Assembly: GCA_903877885.1 (NCBI GenBank)
Contig: CAIRFN010000009.1
Span: 8,218-72,217 of the forward strand
From: an uncultured Candidatus Berkelbacteria bacterium
Lineage (GTDB): Bacteria > Patescibacteriota > UBA1384 > UBA12157
Length of the DNA stretch: 64,000 nt
Reading direction: 5' to 3'
The notes beneath the pieces are model-generated. The model saw only the letters and a program-made list of their open reading frames with translations. It made no database searches and was not told where the DNA came from. This document shows positions 2,139 through 49,138 of this stretch, piece by piece. The position numbers and the translations under genes were made by a program. Position 1 is the first letter of the stretch; each line of letters begins with the position of its first letter.

Positions 2139-3368
2139 TTATTTTAATTTTCTTCTAATAAAGGCTGGGACTTCCAATTCGTCGTCCATATTGTCATCAA
2201 CTTGCGGCATTTGTTCAGGCATACTTGGCATAGCAGTGGCTGGTCTTGATGGCGACATTGACGGTAGCCCACCAAAAGATGGTTTATTACCATATGATGG
2301 CATGCCGGTATATGATGGCGCAACGCCGTAACTGGAACGTTGGCTTGGCAAGCCGCCTAAACCAATGCCAGTCCCCATATTCATACCCAGACTTTTAGCT
2401 TTGCTTTCGCGAAAGCGATCCATTTCAAAACCAGTGGCAATCACAGTAATCTTGATTTCGCCAGACATGGCTTCGTCGATAATGGCACCAAAGATGATAT
2501 TAGCATCCGGATCAGCCGCTTCAGTAATAGCTTTAGCCGCTTCATCGATTTCGTACATACCCATATCTGGGCCACCAGTGATATTAAAAAGAATACCTTT
2601 GGCGCCGTCGATTGATAGTTCCAAAAGTGGTGAATCAATCGCTGCGCGCGCCGCTTCAATGGCTCGGTTGTCGCCTGAGGCGCGACCGATACCCATCAAA
2701 GCGGAACCAGCATCTTTCATGATGGTTCGAACATCGGCAAAGTCAACGTTAATAATTCCGTGCAAAGTAATCAAATCGGAAATACCTTGAACACCTTGAC
2801 GCAAAACATCATCAACAATACCAAAAGCATCGAATAATGAAGTTTTTTTATCAATGACTTGAAGTAAACGATCGTTTGGAATAGTGATCAAAGTATCAAC
2901 TTTATCACGAAGCTCTTCCACACCGATTTCTGCCATTTTCATCCGGCGATTACCTTCAAAAGAAAAAGGTTTGGTTACCACTGCCACAGTCAACGCACCA
3001 AGCTCTTTAGCAATCGAAGCTACCAACGGACCAGCACCAGTGCCAGTACCGCCGCCGGCGCCATAAGTCACAAAGACCATATCCGAACCTTTTAAGGCTT
3101 CGTAAATTTCATCTTTGTTTTCTTCGGCTGATTTGCGGCCTAACTCAATATCGCTCCCTGCGCCTAATCCACGAGTAGTTTCTTTGCCAATCTGAATTTT
3201 GATTGGTGCCTGGTTATGGACTAAGGCTTGGGCATCGGTGTTAATGGCAATAAATTCCACACCTTTTAATTTATAAGCAATCATACGATTGATCGCATTG
3301 CCGCCGGAACCACCACAGCCCACGACTCTAATTGTAGCAAATGTTTCGATTTCTGAACCTTTTTCCAT
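2139..3368 (-). CDS. ftsZ: Cell division GTPase FtsZ with a long low-complexity G/P/S/M-rich C-terminal tail.
   Basis: Tubulin signature [11 protein letters not shown]-terminal region [17 protein letters not shown]. Gene order ftsA-ftsZ. Confidence 0.95.
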
Positions 3369-9937: not shown

Positions 9938-10489
9938 ATGAATAAAATATTTAACCTTTCCAAACAATCTATTCTGGCTTTAGTGTTATTTACTATTTTA
10001 ATAGTATTTACTCCGACCCAGTCGGCTAAAGCATATGATGTTAATTCCGTGCTCAGTCTTAATACTGCTCAATACTTCCCTTTTAATATTGCTCCTAAAC
10101 CAGCTGATGTTAAACCGGATGTACCGCAGGTTGATATGAACAAGGTTAACATTGACCATGATCCAGATGCAATTAAGGCTTACATGCAACAAATTGCTCC
10201 TGAATATGGCGTGGACTGGAAATTAGTTTATGCTATTGGTGCTTATGAGTCTGGCTATTACAAGTCAAGTTTAGCCCAATATAGCAATAACTTCTTTGGT
10301 CGCAAGGCCACCTCTACCACTTGGATGAGCTATGCTTCAGCCGAGGAAGGTATTCGAGATCAGTTTCTTTATGTTAAGGAACATTATCTTGATCGAGGTT
10401 TAGATACTCCAGCCAAAATGAACCATATTTATTGTGAGGGTGATACCTGGCAGTACAAGGTTCAGTACATCATGGATAATACGCAGTAA
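9938..10489 (+). CDS. Secreted peptidoglycan hydrolase of the N-acetylglucosaminidase (glucosaminidase/FlgJ-like) domain family.
   Basis: Signal peptide. VDWKLVYAIGAYESGYYKSSLAQYSNNFFGRKA matches the Glucosaminidase-domain core. Confidence 0.6.
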   Translation: MNKIFNLSKQSILALVLFTILIVFTPTQSAKAYDVNSVLSLNTAQYFPFNIAPKPADVKPDVPQVDMNKVNIDHDPDAIKAYMQQIAPEYGVDWKLVYAIGAYESGYYKSSLAQYSNNFFGRKATSTTWMSYASAEEGIRDQFLYVKEHYLDRGLDTPAKMNHIYCEGDTWQYKVQYIMDNTQ

Positions 10490-19564: not shown

Positions 19565-20122
19565 TTAAGGCTTTTGACCAATAATAACAAGAAAATCGTA
19601 GGTATCGCTTAAAGCTTGTGATTCATCTGTATATGGTTGATATGGATCATTAAGCAAGGTTTTGATTTTTAAAGCCGCATCTTTTTGTCCGGATTTGTAA
19701 TAAATAATTGAGCGATCAAACTTATTTGTCACCGTACCGGTTTGCTCAATCGTAAAATTATTGTCAGTCAAGATCTTTTGGAATTTTTCGGTTGCCAGAG
19801 AATCATCAGAAGCATTGATAATTCTAACTCTGGTAGGATTAGTCGAAGTTTGAGTACTTGGTAAAACGCTAGGATTTGGTGGAGGTGGTAAAATCGTGTT
19901 TTGGCTATCATCAAATTGATTAGAAATAAGAGTCAAATTCAAAGGTATTTTAAGGTTAAAAAGATTGTTTTGTAAAGCAATTTGAACAAATAGAATTAGA
20001 ACGAAACAAAATAAAATAATAACAAAAAACCAAGCTAATCGGCTTTTTGCTGAATCATTATTTTTGTGGTTTTTGTTTTTTTGTTTTGATTTTGGTGCGA
20101 TTATGTCGATATACTTTGGCAT
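19565..20122 (-). CDS. Membrane-anchored hypothetical protein, translationally coupled to dinB. Start 6 nt after the dinB stop; the track ORF extends to 20158.
   Basis: ATG immediately downstream of the dinB TAA. TM segment. P/S-rich linker. Confidence 0.45.
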   Translation of the reverse strand: MPKYIDIIAPKSKQKNKNHKNNDSAKSRLAWFFVIILFCFVLILFVQIALQNNLFNLKIPLNLTLISNQFDDSQNTILPPPPNPSVLPSTQTSTNPTRVRIINASDDSLATEKFQKILTDNNFTIEQTGTVTNKFDRSIIYYKSGQKDAALKIKTLLNDPYQPYTDESQALSDTYDFLVIIGQKP

Positions 20123-20129
20123 GCATTTA

Positions 20130-21353
20130 TTATAACATGATTCGCTTATTTCGACCATCGGGAATATTTTGAACCTTGTCTTTGATTTTAGTTAAGCTAG
20201 CTCGGAACAAAGTAAACTCGCCATAGCGGTCATTGATGGCGTCGCTAGCCTTAATAACCTCATTATTTTTAATATCTTCAGGTAAAAGTAAGGCTGGCGT
20301 ATCAACACTGTTTTTAAGATTAGTGATACTGATTCCAACCGCGCGGATTGGTTTGCTAAAATGATATTTAGTAATAATTTTAAGTCCAACTTGATAAATT
20401 TCTAGGCCGTCATTGGTGAAATGTGTCAAAGTGGTTTGCTCACCGTAACTTGTGAAATCGAAAAAACGAATATAAATATGAATTGTCCGACCTAAAACTT
20501 TGGCTTTGCGCAAACGTCTAGCCACTTTTTCCGCTAACTTTAATAGAACCTTGAAAGCTTCCTCTTTCTTGAAAACGTTTTTAGGTAAAGTGTAGGAATG
20601 ACCATATGATTTTTCTAAAGGAAATTGCCAGTAAGGCAAAACCGGTTCATAATCAATGCCTTGCCCCATCATTTTTAAAATCTTGGCTTGGCGGGGATTA
20701 AAAAAATGCGTTAACCGTTGAAGATTGGTTTGAGCTAAATCCTGCATTGATTTAATTCCGAGCGGATATAATCGTTTGGAAAGTCTTGGCCCAATGCCGC
20801 AAACATCTTCGATTGGAGTGGTAGCCAGAATATCATTCAAATTATTTTTGTCGATAATAGTTAGACCATCTGGTTTTTGTTTTTCACTAGCCAATTTTGC
20901 TAATAATTTATTATGGCTAATACCAATTGAACAGGTTAAATAATCGCCGACTTCAGACTTTAATCTGGCCTTAATATCCAAAGCAATATTTTGAGCTTCT
21001 TCGATATTTTTGCAAATTCTGGTCAAATCCACAAAAGCTTCATCAATCGAAAAAATTTCCACATTTGGGCTATAGCTTTCTAAAATAGAAAATAGCTGGC
21101 GACTAATAAATTGATATTTATTAAAATCAGCGGCAACCACAATAATATCAGGACACAGGTTTCGTGCTTCCCAAACCGACATAATACCTTTAACTCCCAT
21201 CTTTTTAGCTTCCACAGAAAGAGCGGCGCAAATAGTGCGTTCACCCGAACCTTTACCCGCAACACAAACAGGTTTGCCACGCAAAAATGGATTAGACTGT
21301 TGCTCGGCTGTGGCAAAATACGAATTCATATCAACATGTAAAATGATTTTCAA
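20130..21353 (-). CDS. dinB: DNA polymerase IV (Y-family, DinB).
   Basis: ILHVDMNSYFATAEQQSNPFLRGKPVCVAG and downstream Y-family blocks. Confidence 0.9.
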   Translation of the reverse strand: MKIILHVDMNSYFATAEQQSNPFLRGKPVCVAGKGSGERTICAALSVEAKKMGVKGIMSVWEARNLCPDIIVVAADFNKYQFISRQLFSILESYSPNVEIFSIDEAFVDLTRICKNIEEAQNIALDIKARLKSEVGDYLTCSIGISHNKLLAKLASEKQKPDGLTIIDKNNLNDILATTPIEDVCGIGPRLSKRLYPLGIKSMQDLAQTNLQRLTHFFNPRQAKILKMMGQGIDYEPVLPYWQFPLEKSYGHSYTLPKNVFKKEEAFKVLLKLAEKVARRLRKAKVLGRTIHIYIRFFDFTSYGEQTTLTHFTNDGLEIYQVGLKIITKYHFSKPIRAVGISITNLKNSVDTPALLLPEDIKNNEVIKASDAINDRYGEFTLFRASLTKIKDKVQNIPDGRNKRIML

Positions 21354-21574
21354 TTATTATCCTCCAAGAACCATTCTAGAGTTTCTGGTTCGAATCTTAA
21401 TTGGTATGAGTTAGCTTCGTCAGACATAAAAAAACGAAAAATGGTTTGGCCGCCCTCTTTAAAATGGTAAACAAGATTAAGTTTGAGGTTTTTATATAAA
21501 CGATCGTTTCGACGAAACGCCAGAGGTTTAATTTTTGGACCATCAAATTGAATTAGAACTTTAATTGGTTGCAT
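21350..21574 (-). CDS. Small hypothetical protein, first gene of the dinB operon (4-nt overlap with dinB).
   Basis: 74-aa ORF overlapping the dinB start. Preceded by the promoter carrying the candidate SOS box. Confidence 0.45.
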   Translation of the reverse strand: MQPIKVLIQFDGPKIKPLAFRRNDRLYKNLKLNLVYHFKEGGQTIFRFFMSDEANSYQLRFEPETLEWFLEDNN

Positions 21575-21580
21575 ATATCT

Positions 21581-21610
21581 ATTCTACACGAACAAAAAGC
21601 GAACGTCAAA
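21581..21610 (-). promoter_or_regulatory. Promoter of the dinB operon (TTTGAC-17-TAGAAT on the minus strand) carrying the direct repeat GTTCGC-N6-GTTCGT in its spacer; candidate LexA operator.
   Basis: Minus-strand read TTTGACGTTCGCTTTTTGTTCGTGTAGAAT. Same architecture as the lexA promoter at 25217..25246. Confidence 0.5.
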
Positions 21611-21664
21611 CTCAATAAAATTAACATCAAAAACCCCGGAAAAAATCCGGGGCGCGAGGGTTGG

Positions 21665-21871
21665 TTAGAATTGTTCGTCGCGCTTGGCGCAGGCGGCAAC
21701 GTTGATCTCATGGGCGATCCGCGGCCAGTCGGTTTCGCGATTGGAAGTAAAGTCTGCTAAGTGAGCCATGACACGGTTAAGTGAGAGAAAGATACCGCGA
21801 CCGGCGAGAATTTGCCGGATGTAAGAAACAGATGTTCGATCGGTTTGATCGAAAGTGATTTGGTTAAGCAT
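21665..21871 (-). CDS. Hypothetical small protein (68 aa) inside the high-GC island.
   Basis: Strong RBS AAGGAGG 8 nt upstream of the ATG at 21871. Followed by terminator hairpin ccccgg-aaaaaat-ccgggg plus U-run (21625-21655). GC-rich codons. Confidence 0.4.
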   Translation of the reverse strand: MLNQITFDQTDRTSVSYIRQILAGRGIFLSLNRVMAHLADFTSNRETDWPRIAHEINVAACAKRDEQF

Positions 21872-22038
21872 ATTCTTAACCTCCTTTGTAGTATTGGGCG
21901 CGATATGAACTAAAAAAGGCCTTTGCGCTGGAAGCGAAAGACCCAATTCTAGTTATTTGTGTGGCAATTAACTAAAACATAAGCCTTTCGCTTGCGCGAA
22001 GGTCTTTATCGTTTTTGCAAATTGACATAAAACAAATA

Positions 22039-22057
22039 GCCATAATCTAATTATGGC
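22039..22057. promoter_or_regulatory. Perfect 8-bp inverted repeat GCCATAATctaATTATGGC in the divergent intergenic region of the high-GC island; candidate operator.
   Basis: Read directly. Sits between the two divergent island genes, about 110 nt upstream of the consensus promoter. Confidence 0.35.
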
Positions 22058-22160
22058 GAGATTCTAAAACTTTGTCAACCCCACACAATTTCTTCCTGTA
22101 AAACGGCTTCCAGCCTGTTCTTACGGGAGCGAAATCTGCGGGGCAAGGTGCGGATGACTC

Positions 22161-22189
22161 TTGACTTTTGGGTGGTTTTGTGGTACAAT
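22161..22189 (+). promoter_or_regulatory. Consensus sigma70 promoter TTGACT-17-TACAAT driving the 22387 gene, with a roughly 190-nt structured leader.
   Basis: ttgacttttgggtggttttgtggtacaat. The leader contains a GCATGC...GCATGC stem and a ctctcaa-gga-ttgagag hairpin. Confidence 0.5.
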
Positions 22190-22386
22190 TTAGTAGTTTC
22201 GAAAATGAAATATGGTTTAAACCTGTTAAAAACTTTCCTTGTTGGAAATCTGGTTGCATGCTTTCCCCTCCTTGCATGCAGCCGGTTTTCTCTCAAGGAT
22301 TGAGAGTCCTTAAAAATCGAATAGCTAATACACGCGTCAAAGCCTCAAAGAGGTGGAGATGAACATTCTCAAAAAGGAGAAGAACG

Positions 22387-22863
22387 ATGAGAATGCATTT
22401 CACGCTGGTCAATGAGTTAAATCCGAATCTGCCTCAAGCAATTCGGGATGTCGTCAGTCAAATGACGGCGCGTCTTGCCCTTCAAGCTCCGGAAGCATTA
22501 GCAAACGGGGTCTACATTGCCAGGCCGATTTCTGATGGTCTAAGTGTCCATATTAAGTCGGACTCGAGTTTCGAATTCGACTATATGGGTCTTGGCGCCG
22601 ATTTCGGTAAGCTGCCTCTCGGGCTCAAAGATGCTGACGTCACAGGTATTTATATCTATGACGAAGGCGCGGAGTGTTGGCCGGTTCTCGGCCGATACAA
22701 AGGCCGTTCGGAAAATGGCGGTGAACTCTGGCGTGCAAGCGTCGGGCAATTCGCCAGCAACAGCCTGCCAATGTGGCGGCTGGAATTAACCGCCGACACA
22801 ATCGATTGGGCAGTCCGTGGCTGGGAGCAAATCCTTAGTCACGAAATCGACCCGATCGTCTAA
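22387..22863 (+). CDS. Hypothetical protein (158 aa) inside the high-GC island.
   Basis: RBS AAAGGAGAAG 5 nt upstream of ATG. GC-rich codon usage unlike neighbouring genes. No recognisable domain. Confidence 0.5.
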   Translation: MRMHFTLVNELNPNLPQAIRDVVSQMTARLALQAPEALANGVYIARPISDGLSVHIKSDSSFEFDYMGLGADFGKLPLGLKDADVTGIYIYDEGAECWPVLGRYKGRSENGGELWRASVGQFASNSLPMWRLELTADTIDWAVRGWEQILSHEIDPIV

Positions 22864-22871
22864 ATTAGGGA
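22852..22871. repeat. Left arm of a 20-bp inverted repeat pair (CCGATCGTCTAAATTAGGGA) flanking the PaaX-like gene; overlaps the stop codon of the 22387 gene.
   Basis: Reverse complement matches 23417..23436 at 19 of 20 positions. Confidence 0.6.
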
Positions 22872-22893
22872 TAGCTTTTAATCAAATAGAAAA

Positions 22894-23406
22894 TTAATCT
22901 TTATCTATATTAAAAAGTCGGCGGAATTTGTTCTCGTCATTTAGCGCCTTACAAATAAAATAATTAACTTCACCCTGAAGGTGTAATAAGTTAATAAGTT
23001 TCTCGATATTTATAGCAATATCATCTGGTGAAATCCAAACAGACTTTTGAATCGGTTTACAATTAAGTTCCGATAATTTAGATCTGAAAACTCGACGACT
23101 TTTGGCATATTTTTCCGGAATATCAAACGCAATAATTCGCCAATAACCGTCCCAATGATTGTTAATATTTGGCTTAATCAATCTGATAGAACCTTTTGTT
23201 GTTAGTTTAAGTTGTTTTCTGTTTTTGTTCTCAATTTCGACCAAAAATCCATGCTTTTTAAGATTGTAGACCGCTTTAGAAAGTTTGTTTGTAGCAACAT
23301 CAAATAAGTTTGGTATCGATTTATATGGATAGAAAATATCGCCGCCAGCTGATAATATCTCTTCGATAACAGACAATACTTTTTTGGTTATATTTTCTTT
23401 TTTCAT
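22894..23406 (-). CDS. PaaX-family-like transcriptional regulator (winged-helix N-terminus plus PaaX_C-like C-terminus).
   Basis: C-terminal block WDGYWRIIAFDIPEKYAKSRRVFRSKLSELNCKPIQKSVWISP resembles the PaaX C-domain (W.G.W.l..f..PE..R..R..L...G...l..gVWisP). Confidence 0.55.
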   Translation of the reverse strand: MKKENITKKVLSVIEEILSAGGDIFYPYKSIPNLFDVATNKLSKAVYNLKKHGFLVEIENKNRKQLKLTTKGSIRLIKPNINNHWDGYWRIIAFDIPEKYAKSRRVFRSKLSELNCKPIQKSVWISPDDIAINIEKLINLLHLQGEVNYFICKALNDENKFRRLFNIDKD

Positions 23407-23416
23407 TGTTTTTTTG

Positions 23417-23436
23417 TCCCTAAATTAGACGATCGG
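23417..23436. repeat. Right arm of the inverted repeat pair (TCCCTAAATTAGACGATCGG), 10 nt upstream of the PaaX-like gene start.
   Basis: 19 of 20 match to the reverse complement of 22852..22871. An additional direct word TAGGGATAG lies at both ends. Confidence 0.6.
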
Positions 23437-23508
23437 ATATTCTAGGGATAGTTAACATTAATTTAATCAGTAAAACGAGTTATGTTTATTATGGTTATGA
23501 TAATATAA

Positions 23509-24135
23509 TTATATCTTTATTTCTTCACCAGTACCGACGAGGTCGATTTTGTTGTTACGGATTAGAAAACCTTGTTGGTCAGTAAGAATCCGGACCGGAT
23601 ATTTAGATCGGTTGGCTTCGTGTTTGATTGTACTGTGCCATTTTGGCGCGTAGTGAACAAAAAGATTAAAAGGCACTAAGTTTAATCCGGTTAAATCCTT
23701 CAAACCGATAACGTTTCGATCAGCGCTTTTCCATAATCCGGTTTCGATAGTTTGGCCACAAACCATACTGCCAGCGCTGACGCCAATATAAATTTTTCCT
23801 TGTGCTATCATATCTTTTACCACTTCATCAAACCCGCTCTCGCGAATAGCATTTAAAAGATAGAAAGTGTTGCCGCCTTGAACATAAATTATATTAATGT
23901 CCTTTAAAAGTCTGAATAATGTTTTTTGGTTTTTGCCTTCAATATCAATTTCTTCAATATTAAATCCCAATTCTTCCATGATTTTGCGATCTTTTTCGAC
24001 AAAGGCTTTATCGGTCGAAGGTTTTGATGCCGTGGTGATATAAGCGACATTGATTTGATTGGCTGGGCGGGGTAGAATCTTTAAGATTTCATCTTTAATA
24101 TCCATACCAGCAGAGGTTAAAAGTATTGTTTTCAA
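23509..24135 (-). CDS. Peptidase E / S51 family (cyanophycinase-like) peptidase.
   Basis: Layout NVAYITTAS...YVQGGNTFYLL...IYIGVSAGSMVCGQTIE is typical of S51 dipeptidase E. Confidence 0.65.
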   Translation of the reverse strand: MKTILLTSAGMDIKDEILKILPRPANQINVAYITTASKPSTDKAFVEKDRKIMEELGFNIEEIDIEGKNQKTLFRLLKDINIIYVQGGNTFYLLNAIRESGFDEVVKDMIAQGKIYIGVSAGSMVCGQTIETGLWKSADRNVIGLKDLTGLNLVPFNLFVHYAPKWHSTIKHEANRSKYPVRILTDQQGFLIRNNKIDLVGTGEEIKI

Positions 24136-24212
24136 TTAAAAAATCTCCTTGTTTTTAGTAGTCCTGATATATTTTACTCGTTGGGGATTTTAAGTCAAGA
24201 GTCCAACTTTTG

Positions 24213-24566
24213 TTATTCCAGCCGATGCTCCTCGAAAGTTACTCGTCGGTCTTTAACAAGTTCGGCGATTCGTTTTTGCTTGTCGCTCATTCGACTAGTG
24301 GCGGTTTTAAATTCAATAAAAACTATTTTATCTTCATCAAATTGAATGCCATCGATCGGACTACCAATAAAACGAAAGTTTTGCGGATCATAGGGAAAGT
24401 CTTTCAAAAATGGCATAAATTGTTCGGTCATTTTACCGTATTTTGAGGAGAGCGATGATTTTTGAAAGGAAATTGCTGCGTGTCTGTCTGATGCTCGGCG
24501 CCATAACCAGAAAAACAACATGGTGAAAAACAGTAAAATCAAAATTGTATAAATTTGCCAAGACAT
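24213..24566 (-). CDS. Membrane-anchored PD-(D/E)XK endonuclease related to archaeal Holliday-junction resolvase (Endonuc_Holl-like), co-transcribed downstream of lexA.
   Basis: N-terminal TM segment. FIGSPIDGIQFDEDKIVFIEFKTATSRMSDKQKRIAELVKDRRVTFEE carries a D...E.K nuclease core. 22-nt gap after lexA. Confidence 0.5.
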   Translation of the reverse strand: MSWQIYTILILLFFTMLFFWLWRRASDRHAAISFQKSSLSSKYGKMTEQFMPFLKDFPYDPQNFRFIGSPIDGIQFDEDKIVFIEFKTATSRMSDKQKRIAELVKDRRVTFEEHRLE

Positions 24567-24588
24567 ATTTTACCTCCTTCTTATATCA

Positions 24589-25185
24589 TTATTTAAATTT
24601 TCTAATTACACCTTTAACGCGGCCTTGGACCATGACTTTATTGGAATAAATTGGTTTAAAATTAGAGTTGGCTGGTTGCAAACGAATGCGGTTTTTTTCT
24701 CTGAAAAAGCGTTTGACCGTGGCATTTTCATTGTCAATTAAAGCCACTACAATTTCGCCATTTCGCGGATTATCGGTTTGTTCGATAATAATATAATCAC
24801 CATCAAAAATGCCATCTTCAATCATCGAATCGCCACGAACTTTGAGCGCAAAAACATTTTTTCCCATCATATCGCGCGGAATATCAATTGTCTCACTAGT
24901 ACGAATCGCTTCAATTGGATAACCAGCGGCAACCAGACCCATCAAAGGAATTTCAAATTTACGCTCATCAAAGCGTGGAGTCAATTGCAGAGAGCGGGCC
25001 AGATTTGGGTCTTTGGTTAAAAAGCCCTTTGTCTCGAGATTTTCGAGATGGTCTGCCACAGTAGCAATTGATCCCAGCTTAAAATTGTCGGCAATCTCAC
25101 GATAAGAAGGGGCGTAATCATGAGACTCGATGAAAGTTTGAACAAAATCCAAGATTTCTTTTTGACGTTTGGTTAATGTTTCCAT
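24589..25185 (-). CDS. lexA: SOS repressor LexA.
   Basis: N-terminal winged helix. S24 peptidase domain with the catalytic Ser (GDSM) and the conserved Lys (VKR). Confidence 0.9.
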   Translation of the reverse strand: METLTKRQKEILDFVQTFIESHDYAPSYREIADNFKLGSIATVADHLENLETKGFLTKDPNLARSLQLTPRFDERKFEIPLMGLVAAGYPIEAIRTSETIDIPRDMMGKNVFALKVRGDSMIEDGIFDGDYIIIEQTDNPRNGEIVVALIDNENATVKRFFREKNRIRLQPANSNFKPIYSNKVMVQGRVKGVIRKFK

Positions 25186-25216: not shown

Positions 25217-25246
25217 ATCATACCGAACATTGACCGAACATGTCAA
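25217..25246 (-). promoter_or_regulatory. lexA promoter (TTGACA-17-TATGAT on the minus strand) with the direct repeat GTTCGG-N6-GTTCGG in its spacer; candidate LexA operator.
   Basis: Minus-strand read TTGACATGTTCGGTCAATGTTCGGTATGAT. Confidence 0.55.
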
Positions 25247-28971: not shown

Positions 28972-29766
28972 ATGAGTGCGGACCATAAATGCGGGATTCA
29001 TCTCTATGATAACAGCCAATACTGTTATCTTCATAAAGCAATCGATTTCAATAATCGCGATGTGGTGAATGCAATTTTAGAGACACGCCATAATTGCGTT
29101 AACGCGACTTTGCAAGACGGTCGATCAGCTTTATATGCGGCGGCCTTCCATAAATGTTTAGAGATTGTTCAAACACTCGTCTGGCATGGCGCTAATATCA
29201 ATGCCAGAGATAGTTTTGACAATACGCCATTACTACTTGCGGCTGGTAGCTCAGATATCGAGTTACTAACTTTTCTTATAGATCATGGAGCTGATACTTG
29301 TTGTGAAAATAGAGCCGGTACTAATATTTGCCATCGTCTGGCGCAATTTAGTAATGTTAGTACGGCTCAAAGGCTTTTTGGTTTATACGGTGATATTCAA
29401 TATCAATTATTGAATCGAGCTGACCATTGCGGTCAAATTCCGCTCCATTATGCCGCTATGCTTGGTCATCTCGAATTAGTCAGCTTCTTTATAAACTGCG
29501 GAGCAAATCCCAATTATCGAAATGCAATGGATCAAACGCCGCTACATGTTGCCGCTATCTGGGGCAAAGTGGAAATAATCGAGGCTTTAATTCACTTTGA
29601 AGTGGCTGACGTTAAGGCTAACTCTTGTGGGATAACCTGGACTGCTTGGCAGTATTTTGAGCAAAATTTCCCTGATCATCAGGACAAAGAAAAAGTCAAG
29701 CAATTACTTTGCCCTCAAAAAATCTACATGCCTAATTTTGAACAATCCGTTTTAACCTGCAAATAA
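28972..29766 (+). CDS. Ankyrin-repeat protein. Start set at the ATG with an AGGAGG RBS; the track ORF starts at 28954.
   Basis: At least four ankyrin repeats (e.g. GANINARDSFDNTPLLLAAGSSDIELLTFLIDHGAD, GANPNYRNAMDQTPLHVAA). Confidence 0.8.
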   Translation: MSADHKCGIHLYDNSQYCYLHKAIDFNNRDVVNAILETRHNCVNATLQDGRSALYAAAFHKCLEIVQTLVWHGANINARDSFDNTPLLLAAGSSDIELLTFLIDHGADTCCENRAGTNICHRLAQFSNVSTAQRLFGLYGDIQYQLLNRADHCGQIPLHYAAMLGHLELVSFFINCGANPNYRNAMDQTPLHVAAIWGKVEIIEALIHFEVADVKANSCGITWTAWQYFEQNFPDHQDKEKVKQLLCPQKIYMPNFEQSVLTCK

Positions 29767-29937: not shown

Positions 29938-30141
29938 TTAGTTCTTAATTTCTTTTTCTTTGGAAATGACGTAAATGTAAAGAATTTCTAAAATACCAAC
30001 AGTATTAACCACGAACATAATAACAAACCAGACCAAATCCTTCTTGCCGCCGGCCCTCCAGAGGGCTATACCTTTCCAAATCATAGACCAAATCATCGCT
30101 AAGACGAACAGTGACATCATCCCGGGATTAAATGGATACAT
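29938..30141 (-). CDS. Small two-TM membrane protein.
   Basis: 67 aa, two hydrophobic helices. Downstream of the 30154 membrane-protein gene. Confidence 0.4.
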   Translation of the reverse strand: MYPFNPGMMSLFVLAMIWSMIWKGIALWRAGGKKDLVWFVIMFVVNTVGILEILYIYVISKEKEIKN

Positions 30142-30153
30142 TTTACTCCTTTC

Positions 30154-31161
30154 CTAAATATTTTTATTAAAACCTGGTGGAATAATTTCTGGTTCGCGCT
30201 CGGGGATAAAAAAAGAAATAATGACAAGCAGTAGTCCGATGCCAAAACAAATACCCATCGTTTGAGTAAAGCTACTCGTGAATATCTCTACCAAACCACT
30301 TATAATTGGGTAGACAAATTGGCTGACAAGATTATTCATACCGGGGAAATGTGACAAAATAATATTCAAGCCGTCAAAATAAAACAGGCTAAAACAAATC
30401 GTCAAAAGACTGGTGCCTAAGAGGATCGACAAGCCAATCCAGCGAAAAATTGAACGCCAGTCAGGCGTACCCAAGGCGATTAATGACAATGCTGTTCCCA
30501 GCAAGCCCAAGAGTGAAGCCCAGAAAATAAGATTCAACCAAGAATAGTCTTTTTGTAACTGGCTAAAAGACGTTTTATTTTTATTAAAAAAATCATCAAG
30601 CTTAATCTGATCAGGAATATTCTTACTCAATTCGGTTGGATTAGTATTGGCAACAATAGTAGAGATTGCGCTAGACGTTAGATCATCGTGCTTACAATCA
30701 ATCGGTAAAGAATTATTCTGGACAAACTTTTCTTGTTGTTCAGTCGTGCAAGCTGGTAGTTGATCGTAGCTTTCACTGTAAATTTGCGGTGCAGTCGTTG
30801 ACCATTTGGCAACAAAATCAGCCTTGAATTTGGTTAAATCAATTAAAGCAGCCTGATCATATTTTTTTTGCGTTAGATAATTTTGAGTTGTTTTGATTGA
30901 ACTTTCAGTTTGAGCTTGAAGTTCGGCGGGATCTAGGCTTTGAACTAAAATCTTAATAAAGCCCGTATAACCTAAATCAGATTTGATCGTTTTCTGATCA
31001 ATTACCTGACTAGGTATTTTTTGATAGACCTGGGCTTTAGCTAAACTTTTAATAATAAAATCAGATTCTAACCAATATTTAGTCTGACCAGAGATTACAA
31101 ATAGACCAAAAAAGAGAACGAAAAAGAAAACGGCTATTCCAGCTAATGTTTTATAACGCAT
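30154..31161 (-). CDS. Integral membrane hypothetical protein.
   Basis: N-terminal signal/TM segment. Large periplasmic-like region. About four C-terminal TM helices. Confidence 0.5.
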   Translation of the reverse strand: MRYKTLAGIAVFFFVLFFGLFVISGQTKYWLESDFIIKSLAKAQVYQKIPSQVIDQKTIKSDLGYTGFIKILVQSLDPAELQAQTESSIKTTQNYLTQKKYDQAALIDLTKFKADFVAKWSTTAPQIYSESYDQLPACTTEQQEKFVQNNSLPIDCKHDDLTSSAISTIVANTNPTELSKNIPDQIKLDDFFNKNKTSFSQLQKDYSWLNLIFWASLLGLLGTALSLIALGTPDWRSIFRWIGLSILLGTSLLTICFSLFYFDGLNIILSHFPGMNNLVSQFVYPIISGLVEIFTSSFTQTMGICFGIGLLLVIISFFIPEREPEIIPPGFNKNI

Positions 31162-35965: not shown

Positions 35966-36727
35966 CTAATAATGATATAATTCTAGCGGGACTGGAAAAT
36001 TACCAGTCAAATATGCGACAACGGCTCGAGCATGGAGTTCAAATAATTCTGACTCAGTTACATCAATTTGCCAATACTTCGATTTGTCATTGATAACAAT
36101 ATTGTAAGTTGGGAATGAGTTATATCCGTTATACATTGAATCTAGCACTGAAAAGTTGCAAAGATTATTTGTACCCAGATAATAATATTTTGACTTTTGA
36201 TGAAAAAGTCTAAAGCCTAATGATGTATGTAGCCAGAAATTGTCAAAATATGTTTTTTGCAAACTTTCAATTGTTGAATCTTCGTAAATCGCAATTGATG
36301 TGCAAGCAGTAAGAAAAACAACAGCTAACTCGTGAATTTGACTTTCAATATTTATCAGCATTAGTTCTCTAATATTTACACTGAAAATATTATGAAAGTC
36401 ATTATCCGTTTCGGCGCATTCAAATTTAATTAAACTCGGTTGACTGAATTCATAGGGCTTTTGTTTTTTAACTAAACCGCCCAATAAATTGGAAATCATC
36501 TGTAAATTATTTTTTAAAGCCTGGTTTTTGTCATCAACATCAGCTAAATACAAAAAGTATTTTTTAACTTCATTAGGCGGCATTCGATTAAAATGCTTGT
36601 AGTCAGTCTTGGGTATCTCAATTGAAATACCAGGACAAATAATTAGATAAGAATTTTCCAATTCTAAAGTCAGACGATAATAATTGGCGTTTTTAACAAC
36701 GCATTTTGCATAATCACGCAAATCCAT
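35966..36727 (-). CDS. Hypothetical protein lying between two direct REP-like copies next to the RAYT.
   Basis: 253-aa ORF. Own terminator-like hairpin ccttcc-ttac-gggagg plus U6 on the minus strand (35936-35960). No recognisable domain. Confidence 0.5.
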   Translation of the reverse strand: MDLRDYAKCVVKNANYYRLTLELENSYLIICPGISIEIPKTDYKHFNRMPPNEVKKYFLYLADVDDKNQALKNNLQMISNLLGGLVKKQKPYEFSQPSLIKFECAETDNDFHNIFSVNIRELMLINIESQIHELAVVFLTACTSIAIYEDSTIESLQKTYFDNFWLHTSLGFRLFHQKSKYYYLGTNNLCNFSVLDSMYNGYNSFPTYNIVINDKSKYWQIDVTESELFELHARAVVAYLTGNFPVPLELYHY

Positions 36728-40209: not shown

Positions 40210-41217
40210 TTATTTTGCCCATAAAACTGACTTTTTAAAACTTTCCAGGTTTTCCACCGCAATGCCAGTACCTTTGGCCACACACAAAAGCGGATCTTCG
40301 GCAGTCTGGCATGGTACACCGGTAATTTTAGTTAACATCTGATCAAGCGAACGAAGTTGAGAACCGCCGCCAGTCATAACGATGCCTTTATCCATCACAT
40401 CACTGGCTAGTTCTGGTGGCGTATTTTGTAAGACGGTTTTCACCGCCGCGATAATTTCTTGCAAAACTTCACGAACGCCCAAAACCACATCAGACGAAGA
40501 AATCATAATACTTTCCGGTAGTCCTGTAATTGTATTACTGCCAGAAACTTCCATGGTTAATTCTTTTTTGAGCGGCAAGGCGGCGCCGACTTTGATTTTG
40601 ATTTTTTCGGCCGTGGCCTCGCCCACAACTAAATTATACTTTTTTCGAATGTAACTGGCGATAGCCGCATCCATTTTATTGCCGCCAACTCGGACCGATG
40701 TTGAAGCCACAATGTCGCCAAGAGCGATCACTGCAACTTCAGTTGTGCCGCCACCAATATCAATAATCATGTTACCGGAACTTGAGGCAATCGGAATGCC
40801 AGCGCCGAGTGCGGCCGCAATTGGTTCTTTAATAACGTAGGCATTTTTAGCGCCGGCGGCGATGGCCGCATCGACGACGGCGCGCCGTTCAGTTGATGTT
40901 ACTCCAGCCGGAATCGCCACCATCAAATCTGGCCGAAACAAGCGAATTCGGCCGCCGAGCTTATTAATATAGTACTTCAACATCGCTTTAGTGATATTAA
41001 AATTAGCAATCACCCCGTCTTTCAACGGATGCGCAGCAATAATACTGTCAGGCGTGCGGCCCAACATCTCTTTGGCCTCTTGACCAATCGCCATCACTTG
41101 GTTATTGGAAGCGTCGAGCGCCACAACTGAAGGTTCGTTAACCACAATCCCCTTGTCAGGTAAATAAACCAAAATATTGGTTGTGCCTAAATCAATCCCA
41201 ATCTTCTTTAGTATCAT
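40210..41217 (-). CDS. mreB: Rod-shape-determining protein MreB.
   Basis: IGIDLGTTNILVY and actin-fold motifs. 4-nt overlap with murA. Confidence 0.9.
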   Translation of the reverse strand: MILKKIGIDLGTTNILVYLPDKGIVVNEPSVVALDASNNQVMAIGQEAKEMLGRTPDSIIAAHPLKDGVIANFNITKAMLKYYINKLGGRIRLFRPDLMVAIPAGVTSTERRAVVDAAIAAGAKNAYVIKEPIAAALGAGIPIASSSGNMIIDIGGGTTEVAVIALGDIVASTSVRVGGNKMDAAIASYIRKKYNLVVGEATAEKIKIKVGAALPLKKELTMEVSGSNTITGLPESIMISSSDVVLGVREVLQEIIAAVKTVLQNTPPELASDVMDKGIVMTGGGSQLRSLDQMLTKITGVPCQTAEDPLLCVAKGTGIAVENLESFKKSVLWAK

Positions 41218-48052: not shown

Positions 48053-49138
48053 TTGCCAGGAGGCGGCATGACCAACAATCTCGATAATTTAAACACAATC
48101 TCTAAGCTCGACGAAGCAGACATTTTAAAAACTATTCGTGATCTGCCCGCTCAAATCGAGCGTTGTTGGAGCGATTGGCAAAGAATTGCTATTCCATCAC
48201 ACTACATCACCTGTAAAAACGTTTTAATTTTAGGTATGGGCGGTTCTGGTGTGGCCGGCGCTTTAGTTAGCTCACTTGCTCGCTACGAATGCAAATTACC
48301 GGTTGAAGTTTGCCGTGATTATAATATCCCAACCTGGGTTGATAAAAATACTTTGGTTATTGCCATTTCTTTTTCTGGTGAAACCGAAGAAACTTTGGAG
48401 GCATTTCGACAAGCCGCTACTAAAACCGAAAAACTAATTACCATTTCCACCGGTGGCAGTCTAGCCTCAATTGGTAGTAATAATAAAGCTTTAAAATATC
48501 AATATGAATATTCGTCTCAACCACGAGCCGCAATTGGTTTTTCTTTAACCGCTGTTTTAGCCATTTTTGCTAAGCTTCACTTGATTGAAATTCGAAGCCA
48601 AGATATGGCTGAAGTAGTGGAACTATTACAAGGTTTACTCAAACAAATTGACAGTGATGTTCAACACTATCGAAACCCGGCCAAATTATTGGCGCAAAAG
48701 ATTTATGGTAAAATTCCAGTGATTTTAGCCAGCGGTAGTCTGGTTGAAGTCGCTCGACGTTGGAAAGGTGATTTCAACGAAAACGCCAAAAACCAGGCCT
48801 ATTTTGAAGAAATTCCCGAGATGAATCACAATGCCCTGGTCGGTTTAGAGCGACCGGAAGATCTGGCGAAAAAAGTATTTTTTATTATTTTAGAATCAAA
48901 CTATAACTTGGAACGCAATAAATTACGCCAGAATATTGTCGGACAAATTTTAACTAAACAAAAAATCGGTTATGAAAATGTGGTCATGGATCCGACCGGT
49001 TCAGTTCTAGCTGAAATGTTTCAAATGATTTTATATGGTAGCTATGTTTCTTATTATTTGGCAATTCTAAACAATGTTGCGCCAGAACCAGTAAAAATGA
49101 TTTCATTTCTCAAAGAAAAATTGGCTGAAAAAAGCTAA
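48053..49138 (+). CDS. pgi: Bifunctional phosphoglucose/phosphomannose isomerase (SIS domain, archaeal-type PGI/PMI family).
   Basis: ILGMGGSGVAGALV SIS P-loop. Overall length and architecture. Confidence 0.7.
   Translation: MPGGGMTNNLDNLNTISKLDEADILKTIRDLPAQIERCWSDWQRIAIPSHYITCKNVLILGMGGSGVAGALVSSLARYECKLPVEVCRDYNIPTWVDKNTLVIAISFSGETEETLEAFRQAATKTEKLITISTGGSLASIGSNNKALKYQYEYSSQPRAAIGFSLTAVLAIFAKLHLIEIRSQDMAEVVELLQGLLKQIDSDVQHYRNPAKLLAQKIYGKIPVILASGSLVEVARRWKGDFNENAKNQAYFEEIPEMNHNALVGLERPEDLAKKVFFIILESNYNLERNKLRQNIVGQILTKQKIGYENVVMDPTGSVLAEMFQMILYGSYVSYYLAILNNVAPEPVKMISFLKEKLAEKS

Follow-up and report, generated by a model that had tools for sequence, protein, structure and literature searches.

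A GC-rich patch in an uncultured Patescibacteria genome probably pairs an old gene behind a conserved RNA leader with a lineage-specific divergent unit

The DNA analysed here, referred to as the window, is a stretch of 64,000 nucleotides from a contig of an uncultured Candidatus Berkelbacteria bacterium, and the element in question is a patch of about 1.2 kb within it that is richer in GC than its surroundings. Two divergent genes occupy the patch. Open reading frame (ORF) A encodes 68 amino acids on the minus strand, and ORF B encodes 158 amino acids on the plus strand behind a strong promoter and a long 5' leader. An earlier sequence-only reading of this DNA had listed the genes, their ribosome-binding sites, a promoter, a palindrome, leader stems and a terminator, each of which is present where it had been placed. 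Relatives of ORF B were available on three contigs: L085, a 20-kb Joint Genome Institute (JGI) contig that encodes the homologue P0003; L086, a Logan contig 100% identical to L085; and L087, a 1.4-kb contig that carries the homologue P0004. The features of the ORF B unit are as follows.

22161-22189, plus strand: promoter TTGACT-17-TACAAT with a TGn extension, driving the leader and ORF B
22234-22364, plus strand: conserved core of the leader, 131 nt, 92% identical to L085
22236-22299, plus strand: main leader hairpin, 6 + 5 + 12 bp (23 bp)
22290-22313, plus strand: alternative hairpin CUCUCAA-gga-UUGAGAG, with GGA in the loop and UCCUU following
22335-22361, plus strand: two-tier hairpin CGUC-AAA-GCCUC..GAGGU-GGA-GAUG
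22364-22395, plus strand: start-codon hairpin, CAUUCUCA pairing with UGAGAAUG (start codon and codons 2-3), with the Shine-Dalgarno sequence AAGGAG in the loop
22387-22863, plus strand: ORF B, 158 aa, with Shine-Dalgarno AAGGAG (22374-22379) 7 nt before the ATG

The jump in composition claimed for the patch is borne out and resolves into two separate peaks, one above ORF A and the other above ORF B. In 200-nt windows the GC content is 0.33 in the left flank and 0.515 by 21600-21799; between the genes it drops to 0.375-0.445, then stands at 0.50-0.565 over 22400-22899 and falls to 0.315-0.355 beyond 22900. In 300-nt windows the maximum is 0.54, against a mean of 0.376 (sd 0.046) for the whole window. 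The sole other peak near 0.54, at about 40650, belongs to mreB (40210-41217, minus strand, GC content at third codon positions [GC3] 0.45), which is an ordinary conserved housekeeping gene and no island. The outlier test that had been proposed gives GC3 values of 0.547 for ORF B, ranked top among all window ORFs compared, and 0.551 for ORF A, against 0.326 +/- 0.054 across 56 window ORFs, so that both genes deviate in composition in the way expected of a genomic island.

The promoter hexamers of ORF B are conserved in L085 (TTGACA-17-TACAAT), and the leader of about 190 nt folds as a whole better than shuffled sequences (z = -4.0). Its conservation lies in the 131-nt core: identity to L085 is 56% over the first ~40 transcribed nt and 57% in the last stretch before the AUG, compared with 72-81% for housekeeping DNA and 44-58% for the third codon positions of LexA, RelA, the resolvase and rubrerythrin. 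Ten differences separate the two cores. Two of them together replace a G-C by an A-U pair in the GCAUGC stem, a compensatory change; another makes a G-C pair of a G-U; the other seven fall at unpaired positions, including two 1-nt indels that exclude a coding role. None breaks a helix. On the opposite strand gene finders call a 70-aa ORF (22047-22259, minus strand), of which no counterpart is called in L085, and it is probably spurious because it overlaps the conserved non-coding core with its 1-nt indels in L085. To judge from this small set of sequences, the leader is conserved above neutral expectation with structure-preserving changes, the pattern of a structured cis-regulatory leader.

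Stable stems had been claimed for the leader (GCATGC and ctctcaa-gga-ttgagag); they are present and fold far better than shuffles. The main hairpin, UCCUUG..GGAAA.CUGGUUGCAUGC[UUUCCCCUCCUU]GCAUGCAGCCGG.UUUUC..CAAGGA, adopts the same minimum-energy fold in the window and in L085 (z = -7.3 and -6.1) and is strand-specific, at -35.7 kcal/mol on the plus strand against -22.7 on the minus strand, which fits the direction of transcription. Its 12-nt loop, UUUCCCCUCCUU (22262-22273), is invariant and contains CCUCC, complementary to AAGGAG(G); the pairing with AAGGAG amounts to -8.8 kcal/mol. The inner 12-bp stem is followed by UUUUCUCU (22286-22293) and thereby resembles an intrinsic terminator. At the base of the hairpin the 3' strand, CUCUCAAGGA, is able to pair with UUGAGAG instead, which excludes the hairpin base, and the three-hairpin alternative lies 3.0-4.4 kcal/mol above the minimum in both the window and L085. 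Near-isoenergetic alternative pairings also exist among the three UCCUU/CCUCC and three AGGA/GGAG elements of the leader. The architecture of the two-tier hairpin recurs, with different stem sequences, before the ORF B homologues in L085 and L087 and before a second gene of L087. The start-codon stem is kept by compensatory changes (AGUCUCA/UGAGACU in L085, CUUUCA/UGAAAG in L087), and this hairpin too recurs before both L087 genes with differing stems. In the leaders of the window and L085 alike the AUG is predicted to be paired.

Searches with the leader returned no relatives. Rfam 15 (4227 families) gave no match at E <= 1 in 20000-25000 and only chance-level matches at E <= 10 in 21860-22400, with none in L086 or L087. 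Searches with nhmmer, using the leader and the 3' tail found behind the ORF B homologues of the relatives, detected no further copies in 1.16 Mb of other loci of the candidate phyla radiation (CPR), and the window holds no second copy of the leader. A metagenome scan with a two-anchor leader pattern produced six matches, all by chance, and scans of viral contigs with leader, tail and protein patterns found nothing. The near-invariance of the leader in front of a fast-evolving protein points to an RNA control element not described so far, from a Patescibacteria lineage without cultured members.

The protein encoded behind this leader is acidic (pI 4.8), and no signal peptide was seen. Neither ORF B nor ORF A has a significant match in Pfam, NCBIfam, PHROGs, PADLOC or PDB sequences, in agreement with the earlier statement that neither resembles a recognised family, and in a word-indexed search of 5.8 billion protein clusters each retrieves only itself. 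An exhaustive HMMER scan of 1.84 billion representatives found two homologues of ORF B, P0003 (158 aa) and P0004 (151 aa), both at E = 2e-7 and about 33% identity, which share with it the motifs LP.GL, YDEG, P..G and VGQ. The fourth HMMER match, P0005, is a low-complexity LysM-repeat protein and was discarded. A profile search from the family found no member beyond these three, which makes its size three among about 15 billion proteins. ORF B is a genuine protein-coding gene, because nucleotide identity with its homologue at codon positions 1/2/3 is 0.48/0.57/0.31 over aligned codons, because alignment gaps are whole codons, and because an ORF of this length arises in only 2 of 1000 shuffles (0.2%).

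The coding region itself folds strongly. Against dinucleotide shuffles, z is about -5.2 for ORF B, -3.2 to -3.6 for the L085 homologue, -4.7 for the P0004 gene and -4.2 for the gene adjoining P0004, and in all four this is seen on both strands. Across 56 window ORFs ORF B is the most extreme, the remainder having a mean of -0.83 (sd 1.27).

The contig L085 shares the gene neighbourhood and orientation of ORF B with the window. There the P0003 gene lies directly before genes for an S51 peptidase and Endonuc_Holl, followed by lexA, hisS, relA, rubrerythrin, DUF5652 and clpB. Between the two genomes, protein identity is 92% for LexA, 87% for rubrerythrin, 86% for NusA, 81% for RelA, 79% for the resolvase-like nuclease, 77% for HisRS, 75% for ClpB, 54% for the S51 peptidase and 45% for DUF5652. 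At 30%, ORF B evolves faster than any syntenic neighbour compared (45-92%). Its product, probably cytoplasmic, belongs to a new family of three members and changes much faster than the neighbouring proteins do, and the contrast between the leader and this coding region is unusual. The homologue in L085 is also GC-rich, at 0.555-0.565 against about 0.40, with a GC3 of 0.54 against 0.40 +/- 0.06. Upstream of the leader L085 has an asparaginase gene instead, and both ORF A and a PaaX-like gene that flanks ORF B in the window are missing from the locus. The ORF B homologue, the leader and the high GC content are all found at this locus in L085, so ORF B and its leader are older than the split of the two lineages and are no recent import.

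Other differences were seen along the same stretch. Between rubrerythrin and clpB the window lineage has two extra genes (L001 16586-18775), encoding an ankyrin-repeat protein of 264 aa (28972-29766) and a 335-aa orphan (~30140-31150), and several small insertions or deletions therefore separate the window from L085 over this 15-kb stretch. HisRS, one 437-aa protein in the window, is called in L085 (3366-4636) as two pieces of 54 and 367 aa, which could reflect a frameshift, a pseudogene or a sequencing error. The flanks of the patch in the window encode DinB, LexA, HisRS, RelA/SpoT, ClpB, DUF5652 and similar proteins. Searched with DinB, GTDB species representatives yield their best matches in Patescibacteria, at <=45% identity, and the host is therefore a CPR bacterium without a close relative in the GTDB representative set; the LexA and resolvase protein clusters have members from this lineage only.

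On the other side of the patch, ORF A has a transcription unit of its own with the following features.

21665-21871, minus strand: ORF A, 68 aa, GC3 0.55
21880-21886, minus strand: Shine-Dalgarno sequence AAGGAGG, 8 nt from the ATG
21633-21653, minus strand: terminator, an 8-bp stem with 6 G-C pairs followed by a U-run
22078..22050, minus strand: sigma-70-type promoter TTGACA-17-CATAAT, 11/12 matches
22039-22057: perfect palindrome GCCATAATctaATTATGGC, that is GCCATAAT-cta-ATTATGGC
21912-22007, minus strand: leader hairpin of about 95 nt, imperfect, followed by U6 (z = -7.0)

Promoter, Shine-Dalgarno sequence, ORF and terminator follow one another correctly on the minus strand, which argues for a real transcription unit; its terminator stops 24 nt short of the -35 box of the dinB-operon promoter. 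The palindrome overlaps both the -10 box and the start predicted for the ORF A promoter; nothing comparable occurs elsewhere in the window, and its position makes it a candidate operator of this promoter. The ORF A leader hairpin with its U6 is possibly terminator- or attenuator-like, and a three-hairpin alternative fold is predicted to be possible. A PyrR-attenuator match from Rfam in this leader (E = 4.1) was not significant. The coding region does not fold unusually (z = -0.9). Residues 17-53 of ORF A are identical at 16 of 37 positions to residues 8-44 of coliphage LLS gp44, including LADF and WP.IA motifs; tblastn matches three coliphage O-family proteins at E = 0.05, and PHROG 11896 is matched at E = 0.052. 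The resemblance is to the HTH_36/O-family, DnaD-like initiator N-terminus. Unlike an HTH_36 winged helix, ORF A reaches an E-value of only about 0.05, is not matched by Pfam HTH_36 even at E <= 10, and stops where the recognition helix would begin. This is a weak hint that ORF A might be a truncated N-terminal remnant of a winged-helix DNA-binding protein, possibly of mobile-element origin, and the ORF A half of the patch (21633-22100) is possibly a foreign remnant.

Taken together, we favour, with modest confidence, an explanation in which the patch consists of two independent divergent units, unit 1 (22161-22863) being old and RNA-controlled and unit 2 (21633-22078) specific to the lineage. 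ORF B represents a new small protein family, and its leader has the character, as read from sequence and alignment, of an undescribed structured leader of cis-regulatory or attenuator type. The high GC content is a long-standing trait of ORF B that accompanies unusually strong self-complementarity of its mRNA, and the folding of the mRNA may contribute to it. A GC3 of about 0.54 persists in two lineages despite saturated synonymous sites, for which the candidate causes are selection for mRNA folding, or DNA taken up long ago from a very GC-rich donor and only partly ameliorated.

The promoter, the terminator-like hairpin, the near-isoenergetic pairings and the paired AUG suggest an arrangement of attenuator plus translational occlusion. 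Transcripts starting at a predicted position of about 22196 would reach the long hairpin, where the inner 12-bp stem and UUUUCUCU could cause some of them to terminate about 95 nt in. In read-through transcripts ORF B would be translationally silent, with its AUG held in the conserved hairpin. The three UCCUU/CCUCC elements could pair with the AGGA/GGAG elements, including the Shine-Dalgarno sequence, and switching between the extended hairpin and the three-hairpin fold, whose energies differ by 3-4 kcal/mol, would expose or block the ribosome-binding site. Since the leader hardly changes while the ORF B protein changes fast, the partner of the leader is unlikely to be ORF B and is probably some conserved component of the cell, with the ribosome, RNA polymerase, an RNA-binding protein and a small molecule as candidates.

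In its strong promoter and long structured 5' leader, its GC-rich hairpin with a U-tract, its mutually exclusive pairings close in energy, and its paired start codon with UCCUU/CCUCC facing AGGA/GGAG, the unit is like known leaders that work by attenuation or occlusion (riboswitch platforms, RNA thermometers). It differs from them in having no Rfam match and no recognisable ligand- or tRNA-binding core, and in a hairpin loop that is large (12 nt) and invariant; termination and switching are predictions.

Several observations weigh against the explanation that we favour. The comparators amount to one genome (L085/L086) and the 1.4-kb L087, and the covariation rests on 2-4 sequences. For a terminator the 12-nt loop is large, and the U-tract that follows the leader hairpin is short, with four consecutive U. 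The self-complementarity of the ORF B mRNA is not unique, as z is below -3 in 5 of the 55 other window ORFs, and positionally conserved structure was not found in the ORF B coding alignment (structure conservation index [SCI] 0.22; z = -2.8 against column shuffles). An old acquisition from a GC-rich donor, incompletely ameliorated, is a candidate source of the composition of the patch. As to unit 2, the length of ORF A is by itself within chance, being reached in 16% of shuffles. The five other well-folding ORFs (z -3.2 to -4.8) are at 2139-3368 (minus), 9938-10489 (plus), 28972-29766 (plus), 35966-36727 (minus) and 48068-49138 (plus).

Among the alternatives, the one that best survives is that the whole 1.2 kb arrived recently from a GC-richer donor, as a foreign island or as what remains of a phage or plasmid, as the sequence-only reading had proposed; we consider this unlikely, if still worth weighing. 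The GC3 of both ORFs, 0.55 against 0.33 for the genome, the orphan status of both proteins, the absence of ORF A from L085, its weak likeness to the coliphage O-family N-terminus (E about 0.05) and the other extra genes of the window lineage would all suit such an event, and the patch resembles acquired genomic islets in its outlying GC and GC3, its family-less proteins and an adjoining break in synteny. It is unlike them in that ORF B occurs at the same locus in a diverged relative, in that the anomaly survives saturated synonymous sites, and in having no mobility genes, tRNA or boundary repeats. The same reading had held that finding these high-GC genes at this locus in a related low-GC genome would speak against recent acquisition, and L085 supplies exactly that for ORF B: gene, leader and high GC are in place there in spite of a difference of about 20-28% in housekeeping DNA. 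Phage, plasmid and viral-contig collections contain no match apart from the three tblastn matches of ORF A at E~0.05, and no integrase, tRNA or flanking direct repeat was found around the island, so the proposed phage or plasmid origin is not supported. Recent acquisition does not hold for ORF B and its leader; a later arrival is possible for the ORF A half at most, ORF A being absent from the relative's locus as judged from one comparator.

It is also conceivable, though rather doubtful in our view, that the leader hairpin is mainly a stand-alone small RNA of about 95 nt whose CCUCC loop binds the Shine-Dalgarno sequences of other mRNAs, ORF B being merely downstream. RsaE/RoxS-type small RNAs of Firmicutes have C-rich loops that pair with Shine-Dalgarno sequences, and the leader is like them in presenting an invariant unpaired CCCCUCC, complementary to AAGGAGG, in a loop near a terminator-like stem. 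It is unlike them in that the hairpin lies within the 5' leader of a gene and has no sequence or Rfam similarity to them. The strong conserved promoter, the terminator-like hairpin with its invariant 12-nt C-rich loop, the pairing with AAGGAG noted above, and a conservation far above that of the protein encoded behind it all agree with a small RNA. Conservation nevertheless runs 70 nt beyond the hairpin, over the two-tier hairpin, and the start-codon hairpin is compensated, which argues for control of ORF B in cis. An RNA of about 95 nt with an anti-Shine-Dalgarno loop is compatible with cis control as an additional role, the two not being mutually exclusive.

A bolder extension of the explanation with two independent units draws on what follows ORF B in the relatives. 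Behind the homologues in L085 (1239-1330) and L087 (563-680), and absent from the window, is a two-hairpin 3' tail (nhmmer E = 7e-5; z = -6.2 and -7.2) with compensatory stems. The first hairpin is wholly different in sequence and has the same shape in the two, and the L085 tail ends in U6. In L087 a repeat of about 24 nt (ATTAACAATTGAATAATA[C/A]GC) and the two-tier hairpin stand both before the ORF B homologue and before an unrelated 167-aa orphan (12-66 and 650-712), which hints that the leader module is portable. Pfam, PHROG, phage and viral searches with the 167-aa gene gave nothing, and as a paralogue of ORF B it was rejected (hhalign probability 0.5%). Leader, ORF B and the relatives' tail could together form a new kind of self-contained cassette, heavily folded and under RNA control, carried by CPR bacteria or by mobile elements of theirs. 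Its nearly invariant leader would then belong to a regulatory RNA class not seen before, one that responds to a conserved cellular signal or regulates in trans by way of the anti-Shine-Dalgarno loop, and modules like those of L087 would be portable before fast-evolving accessory genes. We offer this as speculation with a low probability of being correct.

That ORF A and ORF B are a functional two-gene module, of a regulator and effector or of the toxin-antitoxin kind, is very unlikely. The two are adjacent and of the same unusual composition, a palindrome lies in their shared intergenic region and ORF A has a helix-turn-helix-like segment, but the toxin-like module envisaged earlier does not fit genes that are divergent rather than co-transcribed, with separate promoters and terminators, nor the presence of ORF B without ORF A in L085 and L087. 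The palindrome is at the promoter of ORF A itself, about 105 nt from the -35 box of ORF B, and models of toxins, antitoxins or defence systems (PADLOC, Pfam) gave no matches. Divergent orientation, separate promoters and terminators and the lack of family matches set the pair apart from type II toxin-antitoxin systems. ToxIN-like type III loci consist of a promoter, an RNA, a terminator and a protein of ~170 aa, with tandem antitoxin RNA repeats. The ORF B unit has a similar order of promoter, short structured RNA, terminator-like hairpin and 158-aa ORF. It lacks the tandem RNA repeats that type III systems need, its protein is acidic without a ToxN/AbiQ match in Pfam or PADLOC, and its leader is far more conserved than ORF B, the opposite of a co-evolving pair of RNA and toxin.

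GC islands within AT-rich genomes are often structured non-coding RNA genes. For the present patch to be such a gene instead of a protein gene is most improbable: the ORF B region does fold at z of about -5.2 in the window and -3.2/-3.6 in L085, ranking first of 56 ORFs, and relatives of normal GC fold unusually well too, but the homologues are detectable at the protein level only, third codon positions are at random identity with second positions most conserved, alignment gaps come in whole codons, and neither conserved RNA structure across the coding alignment (SCI 0.22) nor an Rfam match was found. To an assembly chimera of two organisms, which the sequence-only reading had raised and for which nothing but the composition jump speaks, we give next to no credence, as the exact ORF B protein is present on 18 contigs with an always identical gene order, the 2.5 kb of 21000-23500 with both junctions is 100% identical in every locus fetched, the assemblies include at least four from the European Nucleotide Archive (ERZ18624736, ERZ18625109, ERZ27313079 and ERZ27313089), two contig naming styles suggest different assemblers, and L085 shows ORF B joined to its right-hand neighbours in the same way. 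The PaaX-like neighbour gene gives the same picture of identical sequence and context across assemblies.

At the right-hand boundary of the patch are two further features.

22894-23406, minus strand: PaaX-like gene with a Cas2-like PaaX_M domain
22852-22871 and 23417-23436: 20-nt inverted repeat around the PaaX-like gene, 19/20 matching, unique in the window

The left arm of the repeat supplies the last four codons and the stop of ORF B, whose C-terminus, SHEIDPIV*, is 7-8 residues shorter than that of P0004 (SHEIKPETYHQEKIK*). The right arm makes up one half of a larger palindrome, TCCCTAaattagaCGATCGgatattcTAGGGA, that immediately precedes the PaaX-like start and from its position may be the operator of that gene. 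The PaaX-like gene looks like a small inserted or inverted cassette, which on the simplest reading entered the 3' end of the ORF B unit, or took the place of that end, in the window lineage.

The repeat GTTC-N7-GTTC has just two copies in the window, at 21590-21604 (minus) and 25225-25239 (minus), both within the -35/-10 spacers of SOS-gene promoters: one in the promoter of a 74-aa ORF and the dinB operon (TTGACG..TAGAAT), the other in that of lexA (TTGACA..TATGAT). In L085 one copy lies upstream of lexA (3279-3293, minus). A direct-repeat LexA box of this form is described for Alphaproteobacteria (motif as cited in PMC8565304), and the repeat in the window is that box, here in a Patescibacteria lineage. 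No copy was found near the ORF A or ORF B promoters. The 74-aa ORF (21350-21574, minus) overlaps the dinB start by 4 nt and shares the promoter with the LexA box. It has no family match in Pfam, PHROGs, PADLOC or NCBIfam; a role as an accessory to the Y-family polymerase is possible.

Finding orphan genes in a GC island of a low-GC genome does not prove recent transfer, and here a single syntenic relative sufficed to overturn that reading for the larger part of the island. The CPR/Patescibacteria are uncultured bacteria with reduced genomes, and to our knowledge almost nothing is known of their RNA-based gene regulation. The locus provides a concrete candidate from this group: a leader of about 130 nt, constrained far above the neighbouring protein-coding DNA, with a clear structural model. 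Should the leader prove to be a sensor, or a small RNA titrating ribosome-binding sites, it would represent a new RNA class from a poorly explored phylum.

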